From Chrysomallon squamiferum (taxonomy: Eukaryota > Animalia > Mollusca), in the NCBI GenBank assembly GCA_012295275.1, contig CM022676.1:12400001-12464000 (forward strand): 64,000 nt of DNA, given 5' to 3'. The notes below the pieces were generated by a model, which was given only the letters and a program-made list of their open reading frames with translations, searched no databases and was not told the origin of the DNA. Positions 1,911 through 63,483 of this stretch are shown here, one piece after another. Position numbers and translations under genes: made by a program. The first letter of the stretch is position 1; each line of letters starts with the position of its first letter.

Positions 1911-4900
1911 ATTAAGCATGATGACAGTCAAAAAAACTGAAGCTCTGCATTTGTAGTTTATTTTGTTGATGTCATTTATCATGCGGAAAGTTCACAGAAG
2001 TGATTATTGTACATTCTGTTTCAACCTAAAACTTCCCTGCACTAAAACAGCTTGTAAACTCTGAATAATAATAATACATAAATAAATAATAAAATGTTGT
2101 TTTATTATTATTATTATTAATTTATTTTTTAAGTTAGTTAGTTATTTTTTTATTATAGATAATAAATTTATAACTGAGAGATCAATATGCAGAAGAAATT
2201 AAGAATCATCAAACCAATTACAAATGACCAAGAACAAATTCACAAATAATTCAGGAGAATAAATACACAGTTAAGAACAACAAGCACAGAATTAGTCAAA
2301 TAATTAAACAATAAAGAAGAAAAGTAATTGTAAATGGTAACAAATTCAAAACAACTGGCATTTTCAGGAATACCAACACCAAACTCAAAAACAACATTTT
2401 GAAAGTTTGAAAAGATTTACATGGATATTGTCTGTCATTAGCAAGAAAATTCAAGTCAACATCTGAGATACTTTTCTTTATAAAAGGCCAAAATGAAAAT
2501 TTGTTATGGAAAATCTCATTTCTGAAGTGTAAGAATGTCATCTTGCCATTACTGTACTTGAACAGATGATTAGTGGATCCTCCATTGTGATTCTCTGCAA
2601 ACTGCTAGTGGTCACAAGATGAAATGCAGCTACAATCATCTCAAGGATCACCTTTTTTCAGCTTTCCTTGATTTTAGTCTTCAGTGCCTCCTCAGCTGAA
2701 CATATTCAAATTCCATTTACCATTTCATGAGACATTGTATTGAATACGTTCAGAACTTGTGATAGCCATTCTCCTTTCTTTGTGAACTTTGGTGGTGCAT
2801 CTTCCAAATGTTCTTGAGTTTGTTGACTTTATATGAATTGCCCTATTGTGTTGAAATGTTTTGGTAATATATAAACATGTGCAGTCTCAGAGTACAGCAC
2901 AGTTTAGTAACTTATTTTAATTCTCATAACTGACTTTAGTGGTGCAGGTGTCAGTTAAATGTAACTACATTGTTTTATACTCTAGGAAATTCTACTGACA
3001 TCACCATTGAAAGTAGGGTGCTCCAAGATCAGAAAATTTCTCTCTGAGATCTGTGGGTTTCTGTGTTGTCCTTAAGTGAGCAGATAGCTTCCTCCACATC
3101 TTGAACATTATCTTGTGTTTATGCTGATTTAGGTGATAATTTCCCATATTCCTCTCAGTCCATCTGGTACTTTTATACCTTCCTGTTTATAAATCTCTTT
3201 ACCAATGATGTCACTTCTTTCCAAGAAATTCAGTTGTGTTTCTTGGTCCATGGCAACCATTGTGAGAAAAACAAATCAGACTTAACCCATTATCAGAATG
3301 TGAGAGTATCATTTTTAGTGTCATGTAATGAAAACTATTAGTTTTGAAAATGAATATTTAGTCAAATGTGATTTGATAAGTTCAGTTTTCTACTAATATC
3401 TTAATTCATTATAATTTTATTATTTTTCAGGTTTGTCTCTACAGATGAATGGATCATCATCGTATGGAGTTATAAGAGAGAGATATACTTTGTTTTGTTC
3501 TGTTTCACCTGTTGATGATATATCATCAAATGTTCTATTTAAATCATATGAAAATGGTGCTTTTACTTCAGTTTGCTTGGTTAGCACATCCTGTGTTGAG
3601 TTTTTTCCACGCTCTGGTTATAACTGTGGATGTTTTCACAGCAGTGGAGAAACTCGTGTCTACAACTTGACAATACAAAGTCTGAACATTACTGATGACA
3701 CTAAATGGAGATGTTATCATACTTCCAGTTTCAGTAAAGACTTTATCTTGAACGTTTACTGTAAGTACTTTTGATAAAACAAGTTTCTAGTCTTTCATTT
3801 TGCTTTGTGATATTCAAAGCAAAAGAATAGTTCAGTTATAAGCATTGGCACAGACCAAAGAAAGCAAACTATTTGAAATCTTTATTAAATTTCAGACCAC
3901 ATTTTGCTTTGTATAATCTTTGAAATATAAACAACAAGCTATGACACAATACTGAATAAAAAGTTGGAAACACAAATTCTTTGTTTGGTACTATAGACCA
4001 AACTGGTTTTGTTCTGAACAGCTACATAGTATGAACACCGGTGATTTGTAATTGCTGATCATACTTTTATAATAAGTTTCTTGAATTGAGGAGAAGTGCA
4101 CCAACAATTGTGATGATTTCAAGAATCCAAGAGTCTTACCTTTCTGGATGGCTGATGATGATATTTTGTTTTGGAGAGAAAAAGGTTGATATTGCAACAA
4201 AATAGTTTGCTTTACATATTTATTGAAATTTCCTTTAACACTTAAATGTTTAAATGCAGTGAGAAACACATGGTTCAGCCAGTATCTGCTGTTATAGATC
4301 AGCTAATTATTGTCTGAAATCACCAGCGTCAGACTGTCTATAAAAACTATATTTATTCCTTATCACTGTGTAGAAATGTAAGACAGAATCAATATAAGTT
4401 ATTCCTCTCTCTGATGTCCAATCACTTAAGTTGGAAACTGTTGTTATCTCCAAATACTTTTCCTCTTCACAATTGCCAAATGTGGTGACTCCAATAAACA
4501 GTTTGCGTACTCATAGTGGATAAAGAAACATTAGCTTTATATAAGATAAATTAGTATGTACCTGTATCTTTGTTCTTTATAATTCTCAAGCGCTTCAGTA
4601 AATAAACATTAGTTTAAGTTTATATATTTGAGTAATATAATGGGTTATTGAAGTTAATGAAGTGAGTGGCATTGATAATTTTCGATCTCTTAAAATAAAT
4701 ATGTAAATAGACACAAACACATTCATTAGATATGTAGTGTTTAGAAAAGGGTTTATAGTGTTTTCAGTTTTTTCATTTTATCATTTCAGTTGGTCCAGAG
4801 AATGTGACTGTCACTGGTAACAAAGCTGAATTTGACGCTGATGGTAAAACTATTTTAACACTGAAATGCACAACTTCATCATCCAGTCCCAATGTGACCT

Positions 4901-10900: not shown

Positions 10901-13900
10901 AAAACAACCCACATTTATGTCTGAAACTTGTACAAAAATAACAAAAATCAAATGTATTTAATATATATTATTGACATGAAAATTATTTAATGCAGTGTTG
11001 AAACAGTTGTACTATTTGATGGTAATAATTTGGTGACACTCTATAATGAAAATTAATTGATGTTATATATTTTGTTAATTCTGTGCGTTATTTGATGGAA
11101 GATGTCATCATTTTCATTATCTCATGTGTTCAACACTAAAAAAAGTATATGTAAAATAAAAGAAATCCATAAAAAAAAAAAAAAACAATCGTAAGAAAAA
11201 AGTCAAAATCCTAATGTCTATATTAAAGTTTATTTCCTGCTAGGACCTCCTTACATGCCAAGGTCATTCTCAGCATTTGGTTCTACAAGTGACACTGTAT
11301 TTCTAAAGTGGACAGCAGATTTTGCTGGAGGTCCATACACTCAGAGATTTTTAGTGGAATACAGAGACACAGATACAAAGTCTGACTGGAAACAACAGTG
11401 GTACAATGAACATGCTGAAAGAGATGAAGTTGTTTTTATGAACATCACAGGATTAAACTCAGGACACAAATATGTGTTCAGAGTTTTAGCTGAGAATTCA
11501 AGAAATCTCAGAAACCGCAGTCCATTTACATCTGAAGTAACCATAGAGACTAAAGGTAACATCTAATAATCATTTCAATTATCCAGAGAGAGAGAGAGAG
11601 AGAGACTGAAACTTTATTTAAATAGTTACAATTTTGAATTTTGACGATAATAATAATAACAACATTTTTAAAAAGTTTAAAGAAATTAACTGTAGAAATG
11701 GAGTTCTAGTATTGTAAGAAAAATGAAAAATACATATTTTGATATGTTAGCATATATATTTGAGTTTATTTATAAAATTGACTAAGTGTCCCTTTGGTAA
11801 CATCACATGTTTATATTAAATAAAAGAAGTTATTGCTTCTAATTTAAATTCTGTAAAGAAGTTTTATATTGAACAGCAATTTATCATTTATAAATAGTTT
11901 TTTTTTATATCTACAAATATGGAATGACAAATTTCTAATTTGTTTCTTGTACTGATTATAAAAGAAAATAAATGTTCTACATAAAGAGATATTTTACCTT
12001 CTCATGGACAGGAACAAACCGATACAAAATCTGATTATAAGCATGAATGTCTCATACCAGTTCATCTAAACTGTGATATAACCTGTTGATAAACATTCTT
12101 TGTAAAATCTGGTTATAAACATGAATGTCTCATACCAGTTCATCTAAACTGTGATATAACCTGTTGATAAACATTCTTTGTAAAATCTGGTTATAAACAT
12201 GAATGTCTCATACCAGTTCATCTAAACTGTGATATAACCTGTTGATAAACATTCTTTGTAAAATCTGGTTATAAACATGAATGTCTCATACCAGTTCATC
12301 TAAACTGTGATATAACCTGTTGATAAACATTCTTTGTAAAATCTGGTTATAAACATGAATGTCTCATACCAGTTCATCTAAACTGTGATATAACCTGTTG
12401 ATAAACATTCTTTGTAAAATCTGGTTATAAACATGAATGTCTCATACCAGTTCATCTAAACTGTGATATAACCTGTTGATAAACATTCTTTGTAAAATCT
12501 GGTTATAAACATGAATGTCTCATACCTTAGTTGTAAAATCTGGTTATAAACATTATTGTAAAAGCCTGTTGATAAACATTCTTTGTAAAAGCTGGTTATA
12601 AACATGAATGTCTCATACATTAGTTGTAAAATCTGGTTATAAACATGAATGTCTCATACCAGTTCATCTAAACTGTGTTATAACCTGTTTATAAATATAA
12701 TTAGGAAATAATTTAGCTTATTTAACAAATTATAGGTATTCTATTGTGCACTGATCAAAACACTGGCAATAATCTTGAATGTCTAGTGCCACGTCATCTA
12801 ACTCTGCTCATAAACATTTTAGTTAATTTAACAAACTTTAAATCATTTCTAAATTCATGATCAGTTTATGTTTTTTTTCTTCTTTTTAAAATAAAAATTA
12901 ATATTGAATAGAAATGAAAAAAAAAAAAAAAGGAAACATTTCAGTATTACTGATATTTCTTTTTAGAAAGTAAGATGTAATCATAATTGCAGTTAGTTGA
13001 ATTTGTGTTAAAATACTAGGTTAAATTTATTATTTGTTTCTTTCAGTAAAAGCGTCTTCAAGTGCAAATACTGGAGTTGTTATTGGAGGAGTTGCTGGCA
13101 GTGTTGTTGCATTAATAGTGATTGCAGTGATTGTGACAGTGATTGTGGCACGTCGAAGAATGATGCACAAGAAACGTGGTGAATGATTTTGTCATTGTCA
13201 TTAAAATATTGGATTCTTAATGCATATGGCATTTAACCTTTCTCACAAATTTTTGTTTTTAAATTTAAAATTTTAATAATAATGATAATGATAATAATGA
13301 TAATGACAATAATGATAATGACAATGATAATGATAATAATAAGAAAAGGAATTTATTGCTTGAAATGTTGATGTGTAATTGTATTGTGTATTCATATTTT
13401 TCTTTATAATTTTGTTTTGTTTAGGGTAAAATTAAATATAAAACCAATCATTGTGAACCCAATATATTATCTGTGAGAAAAAATGAAAATAAGACTGGCC
13501 GAAACCATTAGTATTGTTTTATTTCTCATATTCCTTTCAGATCATCTTGATTTATGAATATTGGTTCCTGTAACATCTCATACTTACTTGGCTAGAAATC
13601 TTAAACATTATTCCATGTGATAGAGTATTTAAGAAAAAAACAAGAAAAAAATATATGCATATGTATAGCTTTAAACTACAATTCCAAATGGTAATCATCA
13701 GGAAATACATATTAATATGATCAAACAACATTATATTATTATTCTCTGTTATAATTGTTAAATGGGATGGCTTAAATAAAAAGGTAGTTTTGAAGGATTA
13801 CATTTTTACTAAAAATCATTTATTAATTGTCTCTGTTGGTTAAAACCATTCTATGATGTGATTGGTCAGTACTTGCTGAACTTCTCTGTATGCAGTCAGT

Positions 13901-23561: not shown

Positions 23562-24273
23562 ATAAAAGAACGTTTTTTTTTTTTGCTGCATTTCCTTACA
23601 AAAATAAACCTATTTTAGGCAAAAAATACAAAATAGCCTAAAAAGCTAATTAACTAATTTATTTGAAGTGAAACTGTTTTCACTTTGAGATAACTATGAG
23701 ATCAGTGAATATGTCTGTTTTAAAAAAAAATAAATATATATATTCAGTTTAGTACAAATTATTTGGTCTGTTTCAGGTATCAGTATTTTTTTAATTATCA
23801 AATTTTCTGCATCTAGACAATCCAAATATACCCTACAGAGCACACAATTTCTGAACACAAAAATGTATCGAATACAAATTCTGAAAATGGCAAATAAATT
23901 ACATGTGCAGTTGTAAACATTAGCTTATATAAAATCAGTATTTAATTATTGTAAACTTCATTCCATTAAAATGTAATTAAATTATAAATTATAAAAATGT
24001 AATGTCTTTGTTTGTTTTGTTTTCTTGTTTTGTTGTTATTTTTATTTTATTTTTTTAAAAGAACTATAATGAAGAAAACAATCCTAATTATAATGGACAT
24101 ATTTTTTTCTTTCTTAGGCTCATGCTCAAGGACTTATTTATGTAGATCTTGACTTCAGTGGCTACAGTCCATCTAGGCAAGTCCTTGGAGATGACAATGA
24201 AAAAACAGAATATGCAAGTATAGATCATGGCAAAGTAGGAGAACCTTTGCCAGATGATGAACAAAATAATTAG
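407..24273 (+). CDS. Gene A: multi-exon IgSF type I receptor (leader, 7 Ig-like, FN3, TM, cytoplasmic NPxY/YxN/ITIM/ITSM); nephrin/sidestep-like architecture, putative inhibitory receptor
   Basis: GT-AG exons join in frame with phase-1 introns: 407-467, 3431-3760, 4790-5107, 6027-6323, 8232-8516, 8734-9003, 9405-9701, 10179-10514, 11244-11555, 13047-13178 (TM). Cytoplasmic micro-exons follow, to a terminal exon 24118-24273 ending TAG. A few junctions at 14.4-14.6 kb and 16.1-17.2 kb are ambiguous. Confidence 0.85.
1105..1230. mobile_element. Possible pogo/Tigger-like terminal fragment
   Basis: Begins CAGTGGTACCT like the TIR at 25486 and is locally GC-richer. No matching second end was found. 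Confidence 0.3.
1848..1909. repeat. (CT)n microsatellite
   Basis: Direct reading. Confidence 0.97.
3431..3760 (+). CDS. Gene A D1: N-terminal V-like Ig domain with 6 Cys
   Basis: tttttcag acceptor and T|GTAAGT donor. YTLFC...YNLTIQSLNITDDTKWRC Ig pattern. Near-identical copies at 38323 and 55230. Confidence 0.9.
4790..5107 (+). CDS. Gene A D2 Ig domain (C2/CD80-like)
   Basis: LKCTTSSSSPNVTFTWKN...IRCQVKN. Canonical splice sites. Paralog at 59808-60125 has the same 318 nt length. Confidence 0.9.
5085..5620 (+). repeat. 63-bp tandem repeat (~8.5 units) containing the D2 exon end and splice donor
   Basis: Unit cattgtactagacttgatatGTAAGTgttaattacactgttattttatattaaacagtttata recurs at 5088, 5151, 5214, 5277, 5341, 5405, 5468, 5526, 5589. 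Confidence 0.95.
6027..6323 (+). CDS. Gene A D3 Ig domain
   Basis: PPVISG...LNLSCVVTGGKP...CQCSAKH. Paralog at 60670-60966 is also 297 nt. Confidence 0.9.
6312..8070 (+). repeat. 34-bp minisatellite (~50 units, degenerate around 7480-7920) seeded by the D3 exon end/donor
   Basis: Unit actgtgtactGTAAGTgttcttattacactgttc. First two donor positions are 6324 and 6358. Confidence 0.95.
8232..8516 (+). CDS. Gene A D4 Ig domain
   Basis: NLTCSVTERGNPPADFVWYKNG...FRCVAQN. Splice sites tgtag / T|GTGAGT. Confidence 0.9.
8734..9003 (+). CDS. Gene A D5 Ig domain
   Basis: IDCTADSNPPNPTITW...HGTYTCKA. Splice sites present. Confidence 0.9.
9405..9701 (+). CDS. Gene A D6 Ig domain
   Basis: VTCEAFGRP...DSGTYQCLVDNG (DxGxYxC motif). 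Confidence 0.9.
10179..10514 (+). CDS. Gene A D7 atypical Ig domain lacking the canonical disulfide
   Basis: KWMKN...DTGQYRLEVCNNFTC. Splice sites tttacag / G|GTTTGT. Confidence 0.85.
11244..11555 (+). CDS. Gene A fibronectin type III domain
   Basis: GPP...VFLKW...GG...FLVEYR...ITGLNSGHKYVFRVLAEN FN3 signature. Confidence 0.92.
12026..12695 (+). repeat. 78-bp tandem repeat (~6.5 near-perfect units plus fragments)
   Basis: aaaatctggttataaacatgaatgtctcataccagttc... recurs at 12026, 12104, 12182, 12260, 12338, 12416, 12494. Confidence 0.95.
13047..13178 (+). CDS. Gene A transmembrane exon
   Basis: Translates VKASSSANTGVVIGGVAGSVVALIVIAVIVTVIVARRRMMHKKR: an uncharged hydrophobic helix with a basic stop-transfer. 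Not in the ORF track. Confidence 0.92.
14411..14432 (+). CDS. Gene A cytoplasmic micro-exon (GKDSEKG)
   Basis: Strong poly-T cag acceptor and GTAAGT donor. Needs a phase-correcting exon near 14574-14627 whose boundaries are unclear. Confidence 0.55.
15297..15335 (+). CDS. Gene A cytoplasmic micro-exon (EMDQAHPHILRNE)
   Basis: 39 nt, phase 1-1, homologous to the next two exons. Confidence 0.75.
15553..15618 (+). CDS. Gene A cytoplasmic exon with NPIY motif
   Basis: EMDPNPIYESSAGARPHILKNE, 66 nt, phase 1-1. Confidence 0.8.
16103..16159 (+). CDS. Gene A cytoplasmic exon with second NPIY motif
   Basis: EMEPNPIYVTSEQDSRILE. The donor is either GT at 16160 or GC at 16166. Confidence 0.7.
17760..17852 (+). 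CDS. Gene A cytoplasmic exon
   Basis: NDQSVKETRQMGGVGARAKEPKQQKVEEVK, 93 nt, phase 1-1. GC-richer island in an AT-rich intron. Confidence 0.7.
17966..18038. repeat. (CA)n microsatellite
   Basis: Direct reading. Confidence 0.95.
18483..18578 (+). CDS. Gene A cytoplasmic exon with YSKV motif
   Basis: DDLQNLYSKVKKMNESKTDKSAEKKKLKAQSS, 96 nt, phase 1-1. Confidence 0.78.
21940..21969 (+). CDS. Gene A Lys-rich micro-exon (EKKNKKGKK)
   Basis: 30 nt, phase 1-1, tttatag / G|GTAATT. Confidence 0.65.
22472..22513 (+). CDS. Gene A micro-exon (GGEEVVKSLRTGNA)
   Basis: 42 nt, phase 1-1, atcag / G|GTGAGC. Confidence 0.65.
23243..23340 (+). CDS. Gene A exon with three YxN motifs
   Basis: GDVYQNVELQNVYTNSAFDDNVYQNDKQKSDTT. 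Phase 1-0, GTGAGT donor. Confidence 0.85.
23403..23560. repeat. (TA)n-rich microsatellite region
   Basis: Direct reading. Confidence 0.9.
24118..24273 (+). CDS. Gene A terminal coding exon with ITIM + ITSM
   Basis: AHAQGLIYVDLDFSGYSPSRQVLGDDNEKTEYASIDHGKVGEPLPDDEQNN*. Phase-0 acceptor ttcttag. AATAAA near 24592. Confidence 0.88.
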   Translation, partial: AHAQGLIYVDLDFSGYSPSRQVLGDDNEKTEYASIDHGKVGEPLPDDEQNN

Positions 24274-34708: not shown

Positions 34709-34763
34709 ATGGCGCTGTTGAGATATTTACTAGTTTTTCTCACGCTTGTTAGATACTGTGTAG
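34709..34763 (+). CDS. Gene B leader exon MALLRYLLVFLTLVRYCV(G)
   Basis: Signal-peptide-like, with G|GTAAGA phase-1 donor. Homolog at 53007. Confidence 0.85.
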
Positions 34764-34785
34764 GTAAGATTTATTATTATTATTA

Positions 34786-34826
<41 letters not shown>

Positions 34827-37800: not shown

Positions 37801-38926
37801 ACGATCTGATATGGAAGGCACTAAAGGAGAGAAACTTCTGTGTGAAAAGTCTCACTCATCCTTCATTGCACTATTTACCGGTCGCGCTCTTGAGCAGAAG
37901 GTCAAGAAGTTGAAAGAGACTAGTGATCTTGTGAGCATTACACAAGATGAGATGTCACTTGATGGTGTTTTCAGTAGATACAACTGCTGTAGAGATTGGT
38001 TTTATTCCCATGTGTAGGATTAGCCATCTGGTTATCAATATACGACTTACTACACATCATCTCTGTTGTCAACTGCCTCCCTCTCTTCAGATCAGCATTA
38101 TTAGCAGCACTGAAGAGCATCATTGCGTCATCAGAACATAAACCGGAACCTGCGAAAGAGGACATACTCTGCTGGAAAGAGAAGGAAATGGATGGTGAAA
38201 CTGAATCGTCATTTTGACAAAAATATAATCAAAAGGAATCTATGGCAGGGTTTGACAATATGGAGAAAAAATATTATTTGTGATCACGAAATTTAAATAA
38301 TAATTACTTTTTTATTTTTCAGGTTTATCTCTACAGTTGAATGGGTCATCGTACGGAGTTATACGAGAGAGATATACTTTGTTTTGTTCTGTTTCACCTG
38401 TTGATGATATATCATCAAATATTCAATTTAAGAAATATCAAAATGGTGCAATTACTTCACTTTGCTTGGTTAGCACATCCTGTGTTGAGTTTTTTCCACG
38501 CTCTGGTTACAACTGTGGATGTTTTCACAGCAGTGGAGAAACTCGTGTCTACAACTTGACAATACAAAGTCTGAAGATTACTGATGACACTAAATGGAGA
38601 TGTTATCATACTTCCAGTTTCAGTAAAGACTTTATCTTGAACGTTTACTGTAAGTACTTTTGATAAAATGAATATCTTCTCTTTCATTTTGCTTTGTGAT
38701 TTTAGAATCCAAAAATAATTCAGATATTAGCAATGACAAAGACCAAATGAAGCAAACTATTTCAAGTCTTTATTATATTAAATTTCAAAGTTATCTGTTA
38801 ATCATCAAGGCTTAAATAAAGTCAGATTTCCATGAAAACAAACTTACTTTTAGAAATCTCATTAATTTCAAATTAGTCAAAATAGAGGTTTTGTAGATAA
38901 TATCCCATTATTGCTACTACTGCTGC

Positions 38927-38966
<40 letters not shown>

Positions 38967-41900
38967 TTATTCTTTGTTATTTAATTTTATTCTTTTGTTT
39001 TTTAATTTATATCTATATCTATATATAATATAACATTTTAGGATTAAAGATTAATATTTTTCTAATTTTAAAATTTCAGTTATAGAATATTTGTGTCTAA
39101 TTTGAAAAAAAAGAGAAATGTTCTATGAAATTTAGAATGATTAAATAAGGATATAAATAGTAAGCAATTTATGCTGGCGTGGCCTGTAACAAAATTCCAG
39201 ATTATTTTTTTTTCACTTCCATCTAACACTTGAACAGAGAAAATAAAATAACTTTGTAAAGAGAAACTATAAGAATTGTATCTGATTTGAATTTCACCAT
39301 TCCTTTTAATTCCATTAATCAAACTTTAGTTTTTCAAAACAAACTGTATATAAGAAAATGCTGGAAACTATTTCAGTAAATAAATAAATGACTTAATAAC
39401 CTATACAAAATACAAAGTAATTTGACGATTAATTTTAAATGAAATGTTTTAGTATTATTGTTACTCTTAATTAAAATACTTATTTTTATTATAATTTAAT
39501 TTTCGAAAACAAAACAAAGTTGCTAATACTACTAATAATTCATAATAATTACTTACTGATAATACTATCTTTAGTATTTAATTTTTGTTTACCATCATAA
39601 ATCAGCAAGTTTATTACCTTAATATTTACTTTATGTCGAACTGAAAAAGCCAAAATTTTAAAATACATCAGTATATTATTTAAAACTTATTACATTTTCA
39701 GCTCCAGTGGCATCAGTTACTCTGGAGGTTTCAGGATCTACTCCAGGTTCTGTTGTTGTTGTGGAAGGAAGATCAGTTGAGTTCACCTGTTTTATACAAG
39801 GAGCAAAACCTGCACCCACAACATCTCAGGTGTCATGGTACAGACAAGACAAGTCAGGTAGTAACTTCACTTTACCTGGATCACCTGCTACACCTACTAC
39901 ACGTGACAGAAGTACATCTGTGAACTACACATACACTGCTGACAGACAACATAACAACGACAGTGTTTTCTGTACTGCTAGAAACAGTCTGATGGAGAAC
40001 AGTTCAGATTCAGATATCACATCCACAAACAAAATACAACTTAATGTGCAGTGTAAGTATTATTTTATAATGTTAAAAAGTTAACAATAGTAACATCTCA
40101 GAATGACAAAGTGATTGCTAAAATAATTTCAAAAAATTCTGGACTGATATTCAAAAGGATACTTTGTTATGGAGCCTAACATAAAACATTATGTGTGTGT
40201 GTGTATGAGTTTTTATAAGTTACTACATATATATTGTGTATATATTGTTAAGTATTCTTTTTTTCTCTGATTTTATATATACTATCAAGTGATCTCCTAT
40301 AAATCGAGTTTTATAAAGTGTCTTTCCATCCAGCTTCATTTTATATTAACAAAGTGATTAACTTTCAGGGCCTCCAGTGAGTCCAGTTTTATCAGGAAAC
40401 TGTCCATCCAGCTACATAAGTTCATCTACTACAGGAACATGTCACTGTTCTACATCTGACAGTGGGAATCCAGCAGGGAACACTTCCTGGTTTAAACCAG
40501 ATGGAACAAATACAGGAACAGATGACCTTGTACTAAACACAATACTACCACAAGAGCACAACACCAGAGATTACACGTGCAGAACACAAAATATTGTGGG
40601 ATCAAAAGAAATTATCTTTACACCAAAACTAGCATGTAAGTAAAATAAGCTGAACTCTGTAATATGACACCGATACCACTCATTTATCAAGTTTAAATAT
40701 TGTATATGACTATGCAACTCCAGTCAGAATTAAAATATTTTTCCTTTGAAGATTCAGATGCATTTTTTTTTAAATCAACAGCATATCTATGCACTTTTAA
40801 TGTATAACCATTGTGTTCTATACATAATAAAGATCAGATGATTTTTATGAACTATTTTTATACAAGGTACTTGAAATGTTAGATATACTAGGAGAAAAGA
40901 AATGGTTTAATTCCTTGTGGGCAAATCAGCTCAAATGCCTTTAGGTTCTATGAGAATTTCAAGTAAATTTCTTTAGTTATTTTTTACAGTGATTTAGGTA
41001 AGGCTTTCTTGTTGATTGTGAAATGCTGTCTATTGCATGTTTAATCATGTTAGTTTGCCTATTAACAGTTACTAAGGAAAAATAAGTCAGAAATTAGTTG
41101 TCATGGTTCTCGTTTTCATGTCGAATGATATTCCAAAACATGATAAATAATCCAATTAGGCACACAAGTTATGGATTTTATAGTTATGTTTGCAAATTAG
41201 TGGTATACTATTCATTCAAATAAAATTGAGCATATCTGAGCATCTGTATCACTACCAAAAATCGTACAGCTAATGAAAAGAGAAATTTGAAACTGAAGAA
41301 AACAAAAATTGAATATATGAATCTCACGGGTAATTAAGCACTCCATTCAAAATTTAGTACTTTCAAAAAAATGTGGATAACAAAATAATATAATACATTT
41401 TAGAATTGTGTAATGATCTTTGAACTTTAGACAACAAGTCATGATATTATATTGAAAAAAAAAAATGTTGGAAACACAATGACTTTCTTTTCGGGTCAGA
41501 ACAAATCTTGAAATTGCGACAAACAATTTAGTTGACATATATTTACTGAAATTTCCTTCACCATATATAGTGAGAAGCACATGGTTCAGCCAGTGTCTGA
41601 TAACGTTTCAGATATTTATTGTACCACCTGATTAGTTTAGGAAATATACTAGTTTGAATTTTTCATCAAACATGGAAAAGAAGATTCATTAGAAATTGAA
41701 CAAGCAGTAGCTATTTGTAACAGTTTTCTGTATTCACAAGTATTTGCAACCTTAATGTTTCCACTTGACCTTGAATATGACTTTTAAAATATCGATAGGC
41801 TAAAACGAAAATATTTCAAAATAGAAATTATAAATATATTTTATTAGTAAGGCACATATTTTGTGTCTAGCATACCCCAATCCCCACAAAAAAGACAACA

Positions 41901-44548
41901 ACATTTACTTCAATTAAGAGGCAATATTTTGAATAGATCCTCCAAACAGACCAACACTTTCATCAGATCCTGAACAGCCATGGCTAGAAAACACAGGAGG
42001 CTCTTTGATTTGTTCTTTACCTGACAGTGGTAAAGGAAATCCAGCAGCTGAGCTTTACTGGATTAGAAATGGATCTGACGTACAACACACAGGATTTAAC
42101 TTGTCACTGACACCTACAAAGGAAGACAATGGAGTCTGGTACAAATGTTCAGCTGGAAATCTCTTCACAGACACAAATGGACAACAGAGACCTGAGTCTA
42201 ATTCTCTTCAGATGAATGTGTATTGTATGTTGTTTATTATTTAATATATATATATATATAATTTTTTTGTTTATTTGTTTGCTGATCACCATTTTCACAT
42301 TAACTAAGTAAACAAATAAGTAAATAAATAAGTGTACATATCTTTTGAATATATATTAACTGCACTTTAATTTCACCTCTTTTACATTGTAATCAATGTT
42401 TTCTGTTTCCTCATATTTTAAATTTGTTTTACTTTTATTTTAATCTGTGTAGATGCTCCCAGAGTGAGAATTTTATCAGAGAGTCATATCAGAGTTGAAC
42501 TGGGAAAACTTGTGATACTACGCTGTACAGCTGACAGTAATCCAGACAGTGTTGTATTTGAATGGCGAACTGGTACAAAACACCTCACTGACAGTTCTCT
42601 GTTTCAAATCTCCTCATTTCAACAGTCAGACCAAGGAGAGTACACGTGTTCAGCAACTTCAAAAACTTCATTTAACACTTCAATGTCAGGATCTGCCAGT
42701 GTCATGGTTACAGGTAACTTTATTTACACTTTTTTCATGTGACCTTTGTTAGCAAATGCAACTGATTTTGTTATTGTTTCCATACCTGTCAGAATTAGCC
42801 AGTGTCAATTTATATATGCAGACTTTATTAAAATGTGGGGGTGGGTGTATCTATATATATAGATAGATACACGCACGCACACGCACACACACACACACAC
42901 ACAAACACACACATATACATATTATTCCCAACATTAAAATATTTAAATATATTGCTGATGAAAATTAAAACATAAATCCTTTTTCACGTTTTAGTTCTTG
43001 AATCAGCTCCTGAATGGTGTTACTGCACAAATGTGTTAGAAACTTCAGTTGATCTCAAGTGGAAGTACGACACAAACAAGTTCACTAGATTCACAGTTGA
43101 ACAACGCTTGTCTACTGAAGACCAGTCTACCAGTCTGCAAGTGTCAGACAATAAGACACACGACAAGACTTTTTCTTTACACATTTCTCATCTCAAGTCC
43201 AATTCTTCCTACCACTTTAAAATTTACTCTTCTGCAAATAAAAATGACAGCCGTTACTGTTTGACTCTGTGTACCACTTTAACAACAATAAATTGTAGTA
43301 AGTAAAACATAGAAGTAAAACATATTTGTTACAATACTTTTCTATAGATAAATGAGAATTCATACGTTGTGAAATTATTTACATTTTAAATTAAATCTTT
43401 TTAAATTATATTTAATATATCTTACAGATATAAATCGTTTTAAAAGTTGGTAGTTTTCACCTATTGATTTACTGCTAGCTTTGAAATATCATTATCAGTA
43501 AATGTAAGAGAATAAAGAAAATAAGACAGATCACTGAATTAAGTTCTATAATGTATTATTATAATTACTGTAGTAGGATCTTCGTCCCTGTCAACACAAG
43601 GGACTGGAATTGGAATTGGTCTTGTAGTAGGAATAGTTCTGATCTGCCTTGTTGAAACAATTATTCTACTCATCTTGAGGAAAAGAGGTTATACAATCCG
43701 AGGTCAGTTTTTCTCTTTTTCATTGATTTATTGATTTCTTTATTTACTTTTATTTTCTGTCTGTTAGTTTATATATGTGTGTGTGTATGTGTGTGTGACT
43801 TGTTCCTTTTCTTTTTTGTTTAACTGTTTCTTTCTTCATTTGCTTGATTAAATATAACTTAAATTATGATAATGTAACAATACTTATTTAGCTTGCTAAA
43901 TAAAATTTTATAACATATCCTGCAGACACAGACAGCAAGAATGAAAATGAAATGCATACGTGAGTATTGTTTTGAAATGTTTCCGAACAGTACTATGATA
44001 ATTTCTGATACTGAGGCATCTCTCTACTAAATTACCCGCAGCAGCTGTTTGACATATAACCAATATGTATAAAGTGATAAACTGTATTATATAACTATTT
44101 CACTTTAAAGCAAGTGTTGTTCTAAAATTAAATGCGGATAAAACATATATTAACTGATAACAGCATATGTACATTGTTGCATTAATAAAAAATACTTCCA
44201 TAAATTATGTGAATGTCTCGTTAATAAAATCATACTAAGCACAAATATACCTGGTAACACAACAATATACTGTTTCTCTTATATTGTACAGATACCAAGA
44301 TCTGTCTATGGATTCAGTCCAGGAAACAGCTGTTCGTTCAGGTAAAATAAGAAATCACGTGTTTTGAATATCGTTTTTCGATCCTAGTTTTATTAGTAAA
44401 ATTTCCATTAGAAAGTAATTAACTTGTTAATACTTAAAACGACTCAAACTGAAGTATGTTTTGAAATACAAGTCAAGACGACTGCGGAAATGTAAAATCA
44501 GATACCAGTTTTTCATATACATCAACGAACATTATGCAGCTACCCAGA

Positions 44549-44596
<48 letters not shown>

Positions 44597-45061
44597 TCGA
44601 ACACACATTTTATTCTCTTCATGAAGAGCATGTATCAATAAAATTAATACCAGCAATTACAGTTAACATACAAAATTGAGTATGTCAAATACTTTCTCTA
44701 GCCATTGATCTTTACAAATAGTTTTAGTATTCAGTTATTTGTAAAATTTGTTGAGATATTCGGCTTGATGAGGAAATATTATTTTCCCTTAATACAGCCA
44801 TTAATATTATTTTTCCCCACAAAGTGACTTGGACATATTTTTAATTGTTGTTCTTGTTGTTCTTCTTCTGAATTATCTTCGTCAGATTTCCACATTCAAA
44901 AATAAAATAACGTATTGAATACAGAAATGTATTAGTTAGTGTTTTAAATTATGAGTGGTGTTCATTATACTTTACCGGTATAGAATTAGGACATATTTTC
45001 TAAAATAACTGATTAGAAACAAATATATTTTTTAAGTTAAATTTCAAATATTGTATGTATG

Positions 45062-45093
<32 letters not shown>

Positions 45094-45640
45094 TGTATGT
45101 ATGTATGCATGCATGTATGTATTTATGTATGTATGTATGAGTGCATACATGCATGTATGGATGCGTATATGTATATACGTGTTTTAAATTGAGAGAAGCT
45201 ACAATGAATTAAATAAATCGAAATTATCACCTAATAGTTTTTCCAAATTACGATAATCATTTAATTTAATAAATATTTTCTAGAAAATATAGCTGAATCG
45301 AAAAGAAAAATAGTTTTTCAAAACGTACACAAAGATTTATAGAAATACTAATACATTTATAGAACATTCTGAAACCTCTACTACTGAGTACGAGTGTCTG
45401 CAATCACGCCATGCACCTGCGTATGAAAACATAACCAATAACAAACGGAGTCCAGGTAACATTATTTATTGTCATACAGTTTTTCAAATTCCCATTTAGA
45501 ATTGTTTACTTTGATTTATTATCTAAAAGTTTATCCACTTACGACATAAGTCGACAATAAAATATTCATATGTTAAAATAAAATATACATTTCTAAAAAA
45601 AATCTCAAATGATTTCATTCGTTATTGGTTATCACCAGTC

Positions 45641-45705
<65 letters not shown>

Positions 45706-45842
45706 AAACAACTTTTGTTTGAAAGCATGGCTTCCAGAATTTTTAATAGTTATTTTCAATTTATTTTTATCCCAAATCGTTTTTTTTTTCAATGTTTGTT
45801 TTTCCCTTTTTTCTAGGGAATGTATACGAAAATACTGTGTAA
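34709..45842 (+). CDS. Gene B: complete multi-exon IgSF type I receptor (leader, 5 Ig-like, FN3, TM with Glu, cytoplasmic ITAM); putative activating receptor
   Basis: Exons 34709-34763, 38323-38649, 39702-40052, 40369-40635, 41937-42224, 42453-42713, 42995-43297, 43574-43702, 43926-43959, 44292-44341, 45363-45455, 45817-45842. All are GT-AG and form one continuous reading frame ending in TAA. AATAAA at 45945. Confidence 0.9.
35570..37100 (+). mobile_element. Decayed Academ-like DNA transposon fragments (XPG/PIN-like region) in gene B intron 1
   Basis: Remnants NHPEAIVNIVKGRM, THEEA and IDTTVEKHRQIISEIVAADALSSCDTVPGCF..TVLKV resemble the HEEAD / HALSGCDT motifs. Interrupted by stops and host sequence. 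Family call is from memory. Confidence 0.55.
37440..38010 (+). mobile_element. Decayed Academ-like transposase core fragment
   Basis: YFYAYHLFHCARLISVHIAQM...IWKALKERNFCV, then frameshifted SFIALFTGRALEQKVKKLK..LVSITQ, resembles the YAR..M / DQALEQ..K..GG..GIT pattern. Confidence 0.55.
38323..38649 (+). CDS. Gene B D1 (near-identical to D1 of genes A and C)
   Basis: 327 nt, one codon shorter than the A/C copies. Confidence 0.9.
39702..40052 (+). CDS. Gene B D2 Ig domain
   Basis: FTCFIQGAKPAP..VSWYR...VFCTARN. Paralog at 56737-57087. Confidence 0.9.
40369..40635 (+). CDS. Gene B D3 Ig domain
   Basis: CHCSTSDSGNPAGNTSWF...YTCRTQNIVG. Paralog at 57428-57691. Confidence 0.9.
41937..42224 (+). 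CDS. Gene B D4 Ig domain (distant homolog of gene A D4)
   Basis: PP..P.L....PWLE....L.CS....GNP.A...W..NG pattern shared with A D4. Confidence 0.9.
42453..42713 (+). CDS. Gene B D5 Ig domain (distant homolog of gene A D5)
   Basis: LRCTADSNPDSVVFEW...DQGEYTCSAT. Confidence 0.9.
42995..43297 (+). CDS. Gene B divergent, Cys-rich FN3 domain
   Basis: SVDLKW...FTVEQ...ISHLKSNSSYHFKIYS FN3 signature. Confidence 0.85.
43574..43702 (+). CDS. Gene B transmembrane exon
   Basis: GSSSLSTQGTGIGIGLVVGIVLICLVETIILLILRKRGYTIR. TAGTAG (NAGNAG) acceptor. Confidence 0.9.
43926..44341 (+). CDS. Gene B cytoplasmic exons 43926-43959 and 44292-44341
   Basis: Phase 1-2 and 2-1 exons join as DTDSKNENEMHTYQDLSMDSVQETAVRS. 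Confidence 0.8.
45363..45455 (+). CDS. Gene B ITAM exon
   Basis: EHSETSTTEYECLQSRHAPAYENITNNKRSP, 93 nt, phase 1-1. Confidence 0.88.
45817..45842 (+). CDS. Gene B terminal coding exon (GNVYENTV*)
   Basis: Strong polypyrimidine ttctag acceptor, in frame, ending TAA. Confidence 0.8.
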
Positions 45843-46815
45843 CTGATTCTACATCTAAAAATTACAAAGATGAAATTTTTCGCACCTGTGTGGAAGGTCT
45901 TTAGAAATATTTTCGGAAACGATGAAGATATATTATAGATCTGTAATAAAGTGACAGTGTAAAATATTAAATAACATTTAGTTGTGTTTCTCTGTCTGTA
46001 TCGAATCGGTACTGAACTTCGATTAGTTTCGTCTACATGAGTGCTTGTTTATCAGAGTTAACTGAAACGTTTCTTTTTTTCTTTTTAGTAATATATATAC
46101 TTTATTATTCTGTACTTTCTATAAGAAAACATCTAATGTCATCGTCGTTTCACGAAGTAATAAAATGTTATTTGTAATTTATTTCTCAAATTAACGATGG
46201 AACGGATATTTTCACACGAAATCTGTAACAAAGTGAGATATTTAAATTTGATATTTACTGTAATAAAAATGTTCACTGTAATCTAACTGTTTGATTTTAA
46301 ATTCATTCACCCAGTTTAGCCTTTTCCCTTTACGCCTCAGTTTGGAGAGTGGGTTTTCATCGAAAAAGAAAATATTGTAATTAAGAAAATTACCTTTTGT
46401 AATTCTGTAATTTCTCTATTCACTGCCAGATACATATCAATTTATTAAATATCATCGTTTAAAGGAACACAATTAATTGATATTTTGCAGATGTATTGTT
46501 TGAAAAACAAATGATTAGGCAATGAATTAGATATAAAATTATCAGTTATTGACCGATTCGGAAGTGCGTGGTATGAAAACAGTTCAGATTATTAGTTACA
46601 TTCAAGTGTGCAATAAGAGTCGTACACGCTTTGCTGAGTTAGTGGACTGAAATAAGCTCACAATAAATAAGTTCATCTTATTTTATAAATATAAATGTTT
46701 TATAAATAGCGAAATTTTCAAGGTATGATTACTGACAAATAACAGAAACAAAAAATCATGTGAAATGTAATACATAAAGTGAAATAAATATACAAAAAAT
46801 AAACACTTTAATAGA

Positions 46816-46960
46816 ATGACAGCGCTATAGAAACGTGACACAATAACTTAACCTAGATAAAGTACAACTCGTGTACCTGGAAGAAACAAGTTTAGTCACA
46901 ACATTCACAATGGCGCTGTTGAGATTATTTGTTTCTTTGTTTGTTTGTTTGTTTATTTAG
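46816..46960 (+). pseudogene. Broken copy of the promoter/leader-exon module
   Basis: Same upstream motif and ATGGCGCTGTTGAG as 34709, but the donor is lost and an in-frame TAG follows. Confidence 0.75.
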
Positions 46961-47413: not shown

Positions 47414-49920
47414 CATAGCGGGGAGAAACGTAAGCAGTTTAAAATACAATATATTTAACTATAGCAACGTGATTTATAAAGCTAAAGTCGTCAAGTTACA
47501 ATCCATCCAATCTAAGAATAGACATATAATTAATTAAAATACCTAACTACATTAATACGTAACGATATCAGCAGGTTCCAATTAATGGGTATGCGCCGAT
47601 TTTTGACCAATATTGCGTTATATCCAGCAATATTCATACAGCCATCATCAACAACAGCTACAACTACTACTCAGATCACGTCTTCTTCTATGTCAACAAC
47701 TAGTGATTCAGCCATTCCCTACCAGTACAAACGGTTACTCCCATCATGGCCCATGTAACACTGAGAAAATTTTGTGGCAACCAGAATATGTCGACCTGGT
47801 GGAATGATTTCACAGGACTAATTGCCTTAAACGGTTACTCAAGTGAACGAGCGTGTCTGTTGGTGCCATTCTGTTTAGAGGGACCAGCCAAGATGTGGCA
47901 TCAGGACTTAACAGAAGAAACAAAGAAAAGCCTGCCACTCCTGAAACAAGCCTTGAGAACCGGTTGAAACAATGTTCGGTTTTCCACTTGGCACTTTTCT
48001 CCATGTCACAGAAAACACTTGAGGCCGTGGAGGACTACATAACACGAATCCAAACAGCTACACAACATAAACGCCTATCAAAAGAGCATGTAGTAGCAAT
48101 AGCTGTAAATGGCCTTCAGGAGACTCTTCGACAGTGGGTCTACAATAAAGAGCCCACAACGCTTGAAGAAGTTAGGCATTTTGCACATGTAGCTAACCAA
48201 TCCACTATAAAGATGCAGCTGCTCAGTACGGCTAAATTGGAAGAAAAGGTGGGTCACCCGACGACATTGGTGCAGGCCTTACTAAATAACGAAGGTAATG
48301 CGGTAAACCGACTACAGCAGAGTCCAACAGGAAAATGCCACCATCTCAGGCATCTAGCCGAAGACGTTTCTGGCAACACTTTCCAGCCCCAAGAAACAAA
48401 GCTTACCACAACGAGAATCAGGAGCCTGCATAGCAAGCAGTATTTCGACCAGCAAACCAACCAAGATTCCAGCCACAATACCAGCGAGCTCACCAGGACA
48501 GACCGATGTCGGCTCCACTGCAGCGAAAAACCAGACAGTACCAGCACCCTCTACCACCCTAACTACGACAGCGATGTAAAGGATGTGGTGAGTATTGCCC
48601 TGCTTCTCCACCTCTTATAACCGTGTTTATTTTTTTCCTTGGTTATTATTTTGCAGTATAACTACTTTGGGGAATGCAGTCTGGGAGCAGTGGGGTCCAG
48701 TCTAAATACAAAAAATGAAAGAGAGATGAGCCGAGTTCCGAAGTGTTTATTGCTGGACAGACAAGTACGTTGTCCTTCTACATAGAATACATACATATAC
48801 AGTTTGCAACAATATAAGAGCTATACACAAAATTGATTCATACATATATATTAATTATGCATAATGGCTGTATACACAGGTAACAGTAAATAACTGTATT
48901 AGTTAATTGTGTATATATTGTTTCAATGTTTATTATTGTACATATAGTTATGAACGATTTGTAATATTAGATCAATAAAGTACATATTGCGTGTGTTCCT
49001 GTGGCACCAACGACATGTAATAAATAGCATTTTATAACAAACATAGATTAAAGGTACTTACCTAAATATAAAAATGAAAGAGAGATGAGCCGAGTTCCGA
49101 AGTGTTTATTCTAGGTCAGCCAAGTGCGTTGTAACTGGACACTTGAACCTTGAACCTTGAAACAAATTAACGTACTAATCAAAGCAAGCTGTTGTGAAGC
49201 ACGTCTACGACAGGCACACTTTCTGACAGGTCAGCGGGTGTGTCCGTCACAGAAAAGAGTTTTGGGTAAGGAACGAGGAAATGGGTTCTCGTTACGATTA
49301 CTGGACACAACGAGTACGTTGATGTTTTCCGCTCGTTGTTGTTTCCGGCACTTGTCTTGCTCGTTGAATATCTCATATTCGTCACCGGGTCCGTGTTGGT
49401 TGCGTCCTGTTTGTTTGTTCTCTTCTCGGCTGCTATTGATGTTTCTTTGTTATTTTTGGCTGCTTCCCTCTGGTCCAACAATTCCAAACTTTTTTTTCAT
49501 AATAATAATACTTTTTTTTGATACTGGACACTGCATGAATGAATGAAAAAGAAAAATTAACGTGCTAATTACTGGACACTGGTCTGTGCGTTATTTTATA
49601 GCACTCGGCTCATATCGTTACGTATTAATGTATTTAGGTATTTTAATTATTGTTTAGATTATTGCAGTAATCAATTTACTCGGGATAAGACATCTTTTGT
49701 CTACAGCGGTCCTTAATCGGCGCATACCCATTAATTGGAGCCGGCTCATATCATTACGTATTAATGTATTTAGCTATTTTAATTAATTATATGTCTGTTG
49801 TTAGATTGGATGTATTGTAACTTGACGACTTTGGCTTTATAACTGACGTTGCTATAGTTAAATATATTTTATTTTAATCTGCTTATGGCATGTCCAAGCG
49901 AGGCGTTTCCCCCCACTATG
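47414..49920. mobile_element. Composite ~2.5-kb insertion bounded by ~190-200-bp imperfect inverted repeats
   Basis: 47414-47601 is the reverse complement of 49715-49920, e.g. ccaattaatgggtatgcgccgatt vs aatcggcgcatacccattaattgg. Confidence 0.8.
47746..48620 (+). pseudogene. Frameshifted Ty3/gypsy-type gag fragment
   Basis: KFCG...WWNDF...LEGPAKMWHQDL and Q..E.VEDYITRI...AVNGL...EPTTLEE are capsid-like motifs. A truncated CKGCGEYC knuckle lies in another frame. No pol or LTR pair seen. Confidence 0.75.
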
Positions 49921-52030: not shown

Positions 52031-53006
52031 GTAATATCATACTGAAAACAGACGAAGTTAATATTTTTTGTTAAGATGATGCATAATGCAGTGTCAGAAA
52101 ATAGGTCAGATTGCAGAAAATATCAGTTTTAATCGTGTATATGTTATTCTAGTTCAAGATCATTTCCTTGAACTAGTATTTTAGGTAACGTATTTGCTTT
52201 CATTGCATCCTCTTTTTTTCGATTTCTTTAGTGTTGTTGAAAATTACTGTTAACTAACGATGTATAATTGAACTAGAACTATTGAGAAAAAAAAGAAGAA
52301 AAAAGATCAAATAACTTTCTTGTGTTTGTTTTTATTTAAAAATCGTCCAGCTAAAATCGTCCAGTTTCAACTCGTGTATACAAAGTACAGAAGTTTACTA
52401 ACTGTTACTTCAGAATTAAATGAGTTCTAAATATACTTTGCATATGACAATACATTCTTACAGTCCTTTATAGTAAACATACTAGTTTACAAATGCATTA
52501 AACTACATTAAAGAAACAAATGAAAATCCCAATTAAATTTACCAACCTACACTAGTCAAAGGTAAAAATAGAATACAAAATAATAAATAAATAAATTGGA
52601 TTGATGCCTTGTCTGGTACCTTATTTATAATTAATTAATACCTCAGGTCTGTTAATTTTGATACATTGCAGTTTAGAACATGATGCTGACTCTGGAGATC
52701 TAAGCCTTCGTAAGTGTTTGTGGTGTTATCAGAGTTTCAAATGGATCTGCGACAAGTGTATCAATCAGACATAATCAAAATATAGGTTATCTTAACTGAC
52801 CTCAGAAACTGTTAGATATGCTATTCTTGAAAACAATGCTATGTGCAGTATAGATAAACTGAGGCGCTAAATAAGAAATAAAGTGAAATAAATATATGTA
52901 AAACGCAGACACGTTTACACAGTGACAGCGCTGTAGTAATAACGTGACACTGTAAGTTAACCTAGATAAAGTACAACTCGTGTACCCGGAAGAAATAACA
53001 TACGTA

Positions 53007-63446: not shown

Positions 63447-63483
<37 letters not shown>

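Follow-up and report, generated by a model that had tools for sequence, protein, structure and literature searches.

A transcribed multi-Ig receptor gene with its own ITAM exon, a candidate activating receptor in a tandem gene family of Chrysomallon squamiferum

The window analysed here, a stretch of 64,000 nucleotides (64 kb) from the mollusc Chrysomallon squamiferum, contains three tandem paralogues, genes A, B and C. We lean, though only slightly, towards reading the middle one, gene B, as an expressed type I IgSF receptor gene with an ITAM on an exon of its own, whose product likely activates via a Syk-family kinase. Gene B spans 34709-45842 and comprises 12 exons and 727 codons, the first exon being putative. 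Spliced and translated by script, it yields, in this order, a signal peptide, a V-set domain, four Ig domains, a fibronectin type III (FN3) domain, one transmembrane (TM) span and a tail of 75 residues. The ITAM, YECL-x7-YENI, lies at 45389..45433 on the + strand, which also carries all exons described below, and is an exact match to the regular expression Yxx[LI]-x6-8-Yxx[LI].

The ectodomain is built exon by exon. Exon 1 (34709..34763) was placed by a hydrophobic run, a GT donor and an open spliced frame; it provides the ATG and an 18-codon hydrophobic leader and ends in phase 1. This leader occurs in four copies within the window, and the exon lies outside the stretch compared with RNA contigs. 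Exon 2 (38323..38649; RNA joint 38649>39702) matches no Pfam family at E<=0.1. Its AlphaFold2 model (pLDDT 89.7) has antibody variable domains as best Foldseek matches in the PDB (TM ~0.8), and on this modelled fold exon 2 is an N-terminal V-set Ig domain. Pfam Ig models match four of the five Ig exons at E<=0.1, those of exons 3 and 6 alone being above the curated cut-off. Exon 3 (39702..40052), Ig domain 2, matches Ig_3, C2-set_2 and I-set and has RNA joints at both ends; exon 4 (40369..40635), Ig domain 3, matches Ig_2 and ig weakly, below the cut-off, and is bordered by the joints 40052>40369 and 40635>41937. Exon 5 (41937..42224), Ig domain 4, matches Ig_2 and Ig_3; it is AG/GT-bordered and phase 1-1, its 3' border having no exact bridging contig. 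Exon 6 (42453..42713), Ig domain 5, matches Ig_3 at 8.5e-11, with a contig starting at 42452 and a joint 42713>42995, and exon 7 (42995..43297) matches fn3 at 2.1e-07, above the cut-off, between the joints 42713>42995 and 43297>43574. At intron 5 (42224>42453), the sole reported joint is a non-canonical one, 42191>42430, from a diverged contig; the borders of this intron are therefore set by AG/GT and phase only.

The membrane and tail exons follow. Exon 8 (43574..43702; joints 43297>43574 and 43702>43926) encodes in translation a TM segment with one Glu inside it and a basic stop-transfer. Two small tail exons come next, exon 9 of 34 nt (43926..43959; phase 1 to 2; joints 43702>43926 and 43959>44292) and exon 10 of 50 nt, which carries YQDL (44292..44341; phase 2 to 1; joints 43959>44292 and 44341>45363). 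Exon 11, the 93-nt ITAM exon (45363..45455; phase 1-1), is joined upstream by 44341>45363 (X2, X4) and downstream by 45455>45817 (X2 record 12). Exon 12 (45817..46145) supplies the last eight codons, with YENT, a TAA stop at 45840-45842 and a 3' UTR reaching at least to 46145; its two contigs, 45815-45958 and 45931-46145, have 0 mismatches, with 2 gaps in the second. The coding exons 43574-43702, 43926-43959, 44292-44341, 45363-45455 and 45817-45842 are all AG/GT-bordered. Re-splicing and the motif search gave the same exon coordinates, the same phase 1-1, the same canonical ITAM and the same flanking YQDL and YENT as the first-pass annotation. That annotation had also singled out the symmetry of the ITAM exon: the phase is right, but the ectodomain exons and the TM exon are all phase 1-1 too, so that symmetry is a rule of the family and no special feature of this exon.

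Transcription was assessed with RNA contigs from four runs, all of one study. GT..AG joints were found at nine of the eleven gene B introns, among them those on either side of the ITAM exon. The joint 45455>45817 is carried by X2 record 12, a contig of 237 nt with 0 mismatches, the joint from 44341 to 45363 is present in contigs of X2 (depth 4.9) and X4 (depth 3.8), and exons 8, 9 and 10 are linked by a further contig (X1 record 1; 171 nt, 0 mismatches). Since contigs join the ITAM exon on both sides, it is included in mRNA, and the first of the two refuting conditions named in the first-pass annotation does not hold. No contig that skips the ITAM exon was seen among the six joints listed; contigs drop rare isoforms, and some minor skipping may occur. 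Diverged transcripts from the same runs, which are paralogues or alleles, retain the ITAM motif positions. In one of them (depth 20, X2), the sequence diverges after 45429 and has K-L after the Y-E codons, so that it likely reads YEKL, provided that the Y and E codons before them have not changed in that transcript; another has a Tyr codon at the first ITAM position. The ITAM stretch of the paralogue differs by six letters.

Along the tail of gene B the tyrosine motifs are ordered YQDL, YECL-x7-YENI, YENT. The ITAM lies 40 residues past the basic stop-transfer of the single hydrophobic span, in a topology predicted from the sequence. Acidic residues precede its first Tyr at -1, -6 and -9 (all Glu), and the classical -3 position is Thr. 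The tail has four L/I in total, three of which are at Y+3. When the 75-residue tail was shuffled 200,000 times with its composition preserved, 0.16% of the shuffles satisfied the regular expression, while a six-frame translation of the whole AT-rich window (~128,000 residues) gives 69 matches, many of those listed lying in simple-sequence repeats: by itself the motif is no rarity in junk sequence, yet it is improbable in the tail of gene B. The 64-kb window contains the ITAM exon only once, and the DNA of the tail region is similar there only to simple repeats. One tblastn match to the gene B tail (12753-12827) lies upstream of the TM exon of gene A and was discarded as chance.

The three paralogues are closely alike in their V-set exons. 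The V-set exon of gene A (3430..3760), located by tblastn, is 92% identical in amino acids to exon 2 of gene B, which is 94% identical to that of gene C, all three exons being within 92-94%; outside the V-set exon, identity between genes A and B does not exceed 34%. At the DNA level, the block 3412-3891 of gene A matches 38305-38779 of gene B at 90.8%. The likeness between A and B covers the V-set exon and ~130 nt of the next intron, at 91%, and the remainder is unrelated. The dN/dS ratios of the V-set exon are 0.33 (A-B), 0.31 (B-C) and 1.23 (A-C), which argue neither way on selection because the 11-16 differences are too few. Gene C is a gene A-like copy and visibly chimeric. A transposon search returned only a weak DDE_3 match, below the cut-off, at 30669-30893 on the minus strand, and gave no transposon label to the ORFs 47847-48620, 25620-25907, 37539-37913, 36890-37096 and 30933-31169.

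Gene A differs from gene B at its 3' end, as far as this can be predicted. Its TM exon (13025..13178), read from the ORF, its sequence and the donor, encodes a membrane span without a charged residue. A scan for acceptors and ORFs points to a terminal exon at 24118..24273 with a predicted ITIM (LIYVDL), a predicted ITSM (TEYASI) 24 residues on, and a stop. This exon aligns over 32 aa with the tail of an abalone protein (P0012) at 47% identity (E 7e-5); that tail, LLYVSV ... TEYSGI, lies opposite 24130-24225. The abalone protein, labelled 'hemicentin-2-like', shares the V..FN3-TM architecture, has an ITIM-type tail and comes from an automatic gene model that resembles two fused genes. The ITIM/ITSM exon is 11 kb downstream of the TM exon of gene A with no other + strand Ig gene in between, and we infer that gene A most likely ends in it. 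No second copy of the exon was found in the window, for instance one that would give gene B another 3' end. A filter on splice sites and composition also left 14411-14432, 15297-15335, 15553-15618 (with NPIY) and 15908-15927 as candidate tail exons of gene A, and TM > 15297 > 15553 > 15908 > 24118 as a candidate in-frame chain.

The nearest database relatives of gene B are gastropod proteins rather than oyster ones; exon 3 is 46-47% identical to the Gigantopelta proteins P0001 and P0013 by tblastn. A search with the V-set exon found 13 database relatives. None of them has an ITAM, and of the four whose cytoplasmic tail is complete three lack tyrosine there, so an ITAM tail is no conserved trait of the wider family. 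Word-index protein searches with Ig exons 6 and 3 gave no match at E<=0.001; these blanks mean little, because the exon 3 search missed the very proteins that tblastn aligned at 46-47%.

The first-pass annotation held that little was known of invertebrate multi-Ig receptors fused to an ITAM, and gave Draper-Shark as precedent. This is outdated: such receptors, with the ITAM in cis, have been published in the oyster (CgIgR) and in Hydractinia (Alr), and gene B therefore belongs to an already known kind. CgIgR of Crassostrea gigas, a 'BCR-like' receptor, has five Ig domains, a TM segment and a classical ITAM; it reportedly dimerises, binds CgSyk and drives ERK and phagocytosis (PMC6994640), and a 2025 review names it CgIgIT2 (PMC11999971). 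As described there, it shares with gene B a molluscan origin, five Ig domains, one TM segment and an ITAM in cis, and its second half-motif, YEKL, is the likely reading of the gene B paralogue transcript. It differs in ITAM spacing (x8 versus x7) and in that no FN3 domain is reported, the word 'fibronectin' being absent from the text (PMC6994640); this comparison with the published description is one of architecture and motif only. The Alr genes of Hydractinia lie in tandem arrays and encode type I receptors in which domain 1 is an atypical V-set, alongside more Ig domains (V-set/I-set) and an Fn3-like fold; some tails have ITAMs and others ITIMs, and exon shuffling is reported (bioRxiv 10.1101/2022.03.04.482883). 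The likeness drawn here is one of architecture. These cnidarian proteins have two or three Ig-like domains with highly unusual sequences, whereas four of the five Ig exons of gene B match Pfam.

Two further oyster and mammalian systems bear on gene A. CgNCAM1 of the oyster is summarised in its report as an Ig-FN3-TM receptor with three Ig domains and an ITIM-type tail that recruits SHIP2 (PMC11841013); compared by description, it would resemble gene A, with its predicted tail, in this layout. In mammals, CEACAM1 and CEACAM3 are the inhibitory (ITIM/ITSM) and the activating (ITAM-like motif in cis) member of one cluster, and gene conversion keeps their N-terminal V-like ligand-binding exons closely similar (PMC2832619). 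Genes A and B are likewise clustered and share a closely similar V-set exon, A having a putative inhibitory tail. No sequence homology is claimed, as lineage and domains are both unrelated to those of CEACAM, and CEACAM3 has an N domain only, against five Ig domains and FN3 in gene B.

The vertebrate ITAM chains CD79a/b, CD3, FcR gamma and DAP12 share with gene B the YxxL/I-x6-8-YxxL/I motif in a short tail and an acidic TM residue, and CD79 and CD3 also an Ig ectodomain. The pattern YE.L-x7-YE.I of gene B resembles CD79. These are short adaptors with separate ligand-binding chains, whereas in gene B one large chain both binds the ligand and bears the ITAM. Draper has an ectodomain based on EGF repeats and not of IgSF type. 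Membership of the Draper/Nimrod class (EGF/NIM-repeat ectodomain) was considered for gene B and rejected, its ectodomain exons giving only Ig and fn3 in Pfam; Draper-Shark has no family relation to it. Drosophila Draper does carry an ITAM in cis and recruits a Syk-related kinase, as cited in the Alr preprint (bioRxiv 10.1101/2022.03.04.482883). A narrow search of the open-access literature, judged by titles and the first lines of abstracts, found no gastropod ITAM receptor and no mollusc paired receptors among the papers listed, which does not prove that none exist; in one listing the single paper to mention molluscs was a review of NK cells.

The oyster receptor and the general biology of ITAMs suggest the following steps. 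A ligand binding at the V-set end would cluster the gene B receptor, a Src-family kinase would phosphorylate both ITAM tyrosines, and a Syk/Shark-type kinase would dock through its tandem SH2 domains on the doubly phosphorylated ITAM; ERK signalling, phagocytosis or cell activation would then follow. The two YEN motifs (pYxN) in the tail would also suit a Grb2-type SH2 domain. The tandem family swaps exons, and genes A and B would act as an inhibitory/activating pair on one ligand. Because the V-set exon is common to both and gene A has a predicted ITIM and ITSM, we infer that B and A may be paired in this way, and such an arrangement would be the most interesting part of the locus. In its full form, which we hold tentatively and somewhat short of even confidence, the proposal is that of a paired-receptor locus: activating gene B (ITAM in cis, acidic TM residue) would stand beside inhibitory gene A (ITIM-ITSM) and the gene A-like copy C, the V-set exon being kept ~92% identical by gene conversion while the rest diverged or was reshuffled; a lophotrochozoan would then have arrived on its own at decoy logic of the CEACAM1/CEACAM3 or KIR type.

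Other readings of the tail have to be set against Syk coupling. Its tyrosines might be independent SH2/PTB docking sites of an adhesion-type Ig-FN3 receptor in the style of nephrin, NCAM or Sns, engaging Grb2, Nck or Src-type adaptors singly, with the ITAM spacing incidental and no Syk-family kinase involved; we think this unlikely. An Ig-plus-FN3 ectodomain is typical of adhesion molecules, the Grb2 SH2 domain prefers pYxN, which YEN provides in two of the four motifs, and none of the 13 relatives has an ITAM. This last point speaks against the Syk-coupled reading as well, as do the acidic residue at -1 instead of the classical -3 and the YEN sequence of both second-half motifs, a possible sign of Grb2-type rather than Syk docking. 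Incidental spacing, however, fits poorly with three L/I at Y+3 plus an exact x7 spacing, found in only 0.16% of shuffles, with paralogue transcripts that lose YxN (N to K) but retain YxxL at the second position, and with the predicted ITIM/ITSM tail of the neighbour, which suggests immunoreceptor logic.

The YxxL/I motifs could instead be YxxPhi endocytic sorting signals for AP-2, making the gene B product a scavenger-type receptor, or one that recycles constitutively, and not a kinase-coupled one. YQDL, YECL and YENI all satisfy YxxPhi, a motif that needs no fixed spacing between copies; that reading leaves both the ITAM spacing and its conservation in the paralogue unexplained, and endocytic and ITAM roles are compatible, as vertebrate ITAMs also drive uptake. 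We consider it improbable. Equally little weight goes to the ITAM being a chance arrangement, with no signalling role, in a tyrosine-rich, fast-evolving tail: the 69 matches in the six-frame translation of the AT-rich window and the lack of tail conservation in database relatives would agree with it, but the shuffle probability is 0.0016, the ITAM exon is spliced into mRNA, and diverged transcripts retain the tyrosine and YxxL.

ITAM/ITIM signalling was long regarded as a vertebrate immune invention, and work on the oyster, Hydractinia and Botryllus has revealed invertebrate receptor families that share ITAM and ITIM motifs. To these the present locus adds a gastropod-related receptor family whose ITAM exon is documented directly by RNA. 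If the predicted tail of gene A is real, the locus would also hold a compact activating/inhibitory pair sharing one homogenised V-set exon, and two questions would become testable in a mollusc: whether paired receptors arise there from the same pressure, pathogens exploiting inhibitory receptors, and whether a balance of Syk against SHP/SHIP is at work beyond deuterostomes and cnidarians. How such tails and domains are shuffled is illustrated by the all-phase-1 exon structure and by the chimeric gene C.

Gene B, an ITAM-tailed Ig receptor gene, is the middle one of three tandem paralogues (A, B and C) that we found within the window, all on the + strand. It consists of 12 exons (34709-45842) and, once spliced, reads as an open frame of 727 codons. 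Its leader exon (34709-34763), which contains an ATG and a hydrophobic run, has a GT donor in phase 1; the V-set exon (38323-38649), the exon of Ig domain 2 (39702-40052), three further Ig exons (40369-40635, 41937-42224 and 42453-42713) and an FN3 exon (42995-43297) follow, each of phase 1-1. The TM exon (43574-43702), a 34-nt exon (43926-43959) and a 50-nt exon (44292-44341), each bordered by an AG acceptor and a GT donor, lead to the 93-nt ITAM exon (45363-45455; AG/GT borders) and to the last coding piece (45817-45842), which terminates in TAA. Spliced, the tail exons encode a hydrophobic span and a basic stop-transfer, then a tail of 75 residues whose tyrosines lie in YQDL, YECL, YENI and YENT, in addition to a single juxtamembrane Tyr. 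The first-pass annotation had described a canonical ITAM on a symmetric exon of its own, flanked by YQDL and YENT: splice borders and a regular-expression match place the exons and the motif (45389-45433) exactly where it had them, and splicing and translation of the exons established that the ITAM exon indeed enters and leaves in phase 1. This symmetry is the family norm, since the whole gene B ectodomain and the TM exon are also phase 1-1. One Glu codon (43653-43655, + strand) lies within the predicted membrane span, unlike the span of gene A, which has no charged residue; an acidic TM residue is also found in vertebrate ITAM chains, where it serves partner assembly.

Expression was assessed on contigs from four RNA runs, all of one study, which cover parts of the gene B stretch. 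These contigs contain the GT..AG joints 38649>39702, 40052>40369, 40635>41937, 42713>42995, 43297>43574, 43702>43926, 43959>44292, 44341>45363 and 45455>45817, that is, nine of the 11 introns of the model; intron 1 lies outside the RNA-compared stretch, and no RNA contig bridges the predicted ends of intron 5. Record 1 of run X1 (171 nt) runs from the TM exon through the 34-nt exon into the 50-nt exon, and record 12 of run X2 (237 nt) spans the entire ITAM exon and reaches 144 nt into the last one, both with 0 mismatches. The ITAM exon is therefore present in mRNA, which disposes of the objection, raised at first pass, that it might be absent from it. No exon-skipping joint occurs among the joints listed for these contigs, which may miss a minor isoform. 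Gene B is thus expressed, and it encodes a type I IgSF receptor that carries a canonical ITAM in cis.

A bare ITAM pattern is cheap in AT-rich DNA: in this AT-rich, eukaryotic window (~30% GC), six-frame translation of the whole length (~128,000 residues) yields 69 matches, many of those listed lying in microsatellites. Within the gene B tail the pattern is not cheap, because Leu and Ile number just four, three of them at Y+3. It is present in 0.16% of 200,000 composition-preserving shuffles of this tail, and in 0.35% when a spacing of x6-12 is allowed, and we regard a chance arrangement as improbable. The tyrosines might otherwise serve single-site SH2 docking in an adhesion-type receptor, an explanation that we consider unlikely but would not dismiss: YEN suits Grb2, and the gene B tail offers it. 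That the YxxL/I elements are YxxPhi sorting signals seems to us as improbable as chance. Diverged transcripts add to this picture. RNA contigs 88-99% like the window, which are paralogues or alleles, occur in the same four-run set. In one X2 variant (depth 20), the ITAM exon has its first 15 nt replaced, six unseen changes fall in 45378-45429, and the in-frame reading past 45429 is K-L-K-V-S-D; assuming that the preceding Y and E codons are unchanged, its second half-motif is YEKL, so that YxxL is retained and YxN is lost. In another variant, whose contig has a loose end at 44341, the first ITAM position is occupied by a Tyr codon. These variants offer partial evidence that the ITAM positions are kept under divergence.

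Under the preferred reading, that of a signalling ITAM, clustering of the gene B receptor would lead to phosphorylation of the motif by a Src-family kinase, a Syk/Shark tandem SH2 would dock on it, and ERK and phagocytic activation would follow, by extension from oyster CgIgR and from general ITAM biology. CgIgR, with five Ig domains, a TM segment and an ITAM, is reported to dimerise and to bind CgSyk, driving ERK (PMC6994640), and this oyster ITAM-in-cis multi-Ig receptor is also covered in a review (PMC11999971). Receptors of the same type are described in the Hydractinia Alr family (bioRxiv 10.1101/2022.03.04.482883), ITIM/hemITAM receptors in Botryllus (PMC12582321), and an ITIM-bearing Ig-FN3 receptor in oyster (PMC11841013). 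Gene B hence adds to an already known type, and the first-pass interpretation, whose proposed signalling function has a published precedent, is partly supported.

Pfam Ig families match four of the five gene B Ig exons at E<=0.1, two of them exceeding the curated cut-off, and fn3 matches one exon above cut-off; only the first Ig exon is left unmatched. Its predicted fold reaches a pLDDT of 89.7 (9-row alignment), and the best PDB matches of this model are antibody variable domains (TM ~0.8), on account of which we assign it as a predicted V-set domain, unusual in sequence and bearing extra cysteines. Searched exhaustively by HMMER, this exon retrieved 13 proteins at E<=0.001 (best 1.1e-11). 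Those with names are uncharacterised proteins from the snail Gigantopelta aegis and, from the abalone Haliotis cracherodii, a model labelled 'hemicentin-2-like'; two Gigantopelta proteins are 46-47% identical to Ig domain 2. These relatives identify the source of the window as a mollusc, probably a gastropod. An ITAM is absent from all 13 relatives, and of the four that possess both a TM span and a complete tail, three have no tyrosine in that tail. Two Gigantopelta aegis proteins, P0001 and P0013, repeat the unusual V-set domain several times, and their short C-terminal tails contain NPxFF and lack tyrosine, indicating that tail types vary widely across the receptor family.

In gene A, the upstream paralogue, the V-set exon (about 3430-3760) is followed by more Ig exons extending to 10537, by FN3 (11195-11566) and by TM (13025-13178). 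Genes A and B have in common a 480-nt block (V exon and ~130 nt of intron) with 90.8% DNA and 92% protein identity; the non-V domains of gene A are at most 34% identical to their gene B counterparts, and no DNA similarity was found between the tails. In a scan of the sequence beyond the gene A TM exon for open frames flanked by an acceptor, we located an exon (24118-24273, + strand) encoding an ITIM (LIYVDL) and, 24 residues later, an ITSM (TEYASI), then a stop. Over 32 residues it is 47% identical to the abalone tail (E 7e-5); the C-terminal end of the abalone protein reads LLYVSV ... TEYSGI, and the second half of that model has a V ... FN3-TM layout, as in gene A. No other + strand Ig gene was found between 13.2 and 24.1 kb, and we take exon 24118-24273 to be the probable terminal exon of gene A. 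Also 3' of the gene A TM exon are two candidate mini-exons (15297-15335 and 15553-15618, + strand), duplicated and phase 1-1; the latter encodes the PTB-type motif NPIY and is similar to LYETS motifs in the tail of the abalone protein.

The common V exon and the opposite predicted tails of genes A and B would suit a paired-receptor scheme. Among its analogues with an ITAM in cis, CEACAM1/CEACAM3 is the best described, and the N-domain exons of that pair are reported to be kept alike by gene conversion (PMC2832619). A narrow literature search found neither a gastropod ITAM receptor nor mollusc paired receptors. The novel part would be this activating/inhibitory reading, resting on one inferred gene A splice; such a pair, if verified, would raise the interest of the locus.

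Gene C (54928-64000), whose tail is beyond the window end, combines a gene A copy (86-97% DNA identity to 3411-9842) with a gene B-like Ig2-Ig3 block (77-93% to 38308-41479) inserted after the V exon, a chimera that makes exon shuffling in the cluster directly visible. Between genes B and C lie two more copies of the family leader exon, with start codon and hydrophobic leader (46907-46920 and 53004-53017, + strand), the latter retaining its GT donor; both stand without attached Ig exons and may be remnants of broken family members. Long transposon-like ORFs occupy 35600-38200 (intron 1 of gene B) and, between genes, 30669-31341 (- strand) and 47847-48620 (+ strand); apart from a weak DDE_3 match under cut-off at 30669-30893 (- strand), they have no Pfam match. 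A 34-bp minisatellite of ~52 copies (6312-8076) begins at the 3' end of an Ig exon of gene A and has a counterpart in gene C (60955-62206); since each unit repeats the exon end and its GTAAGT donor, the intron contains dozens of potential donor sites.
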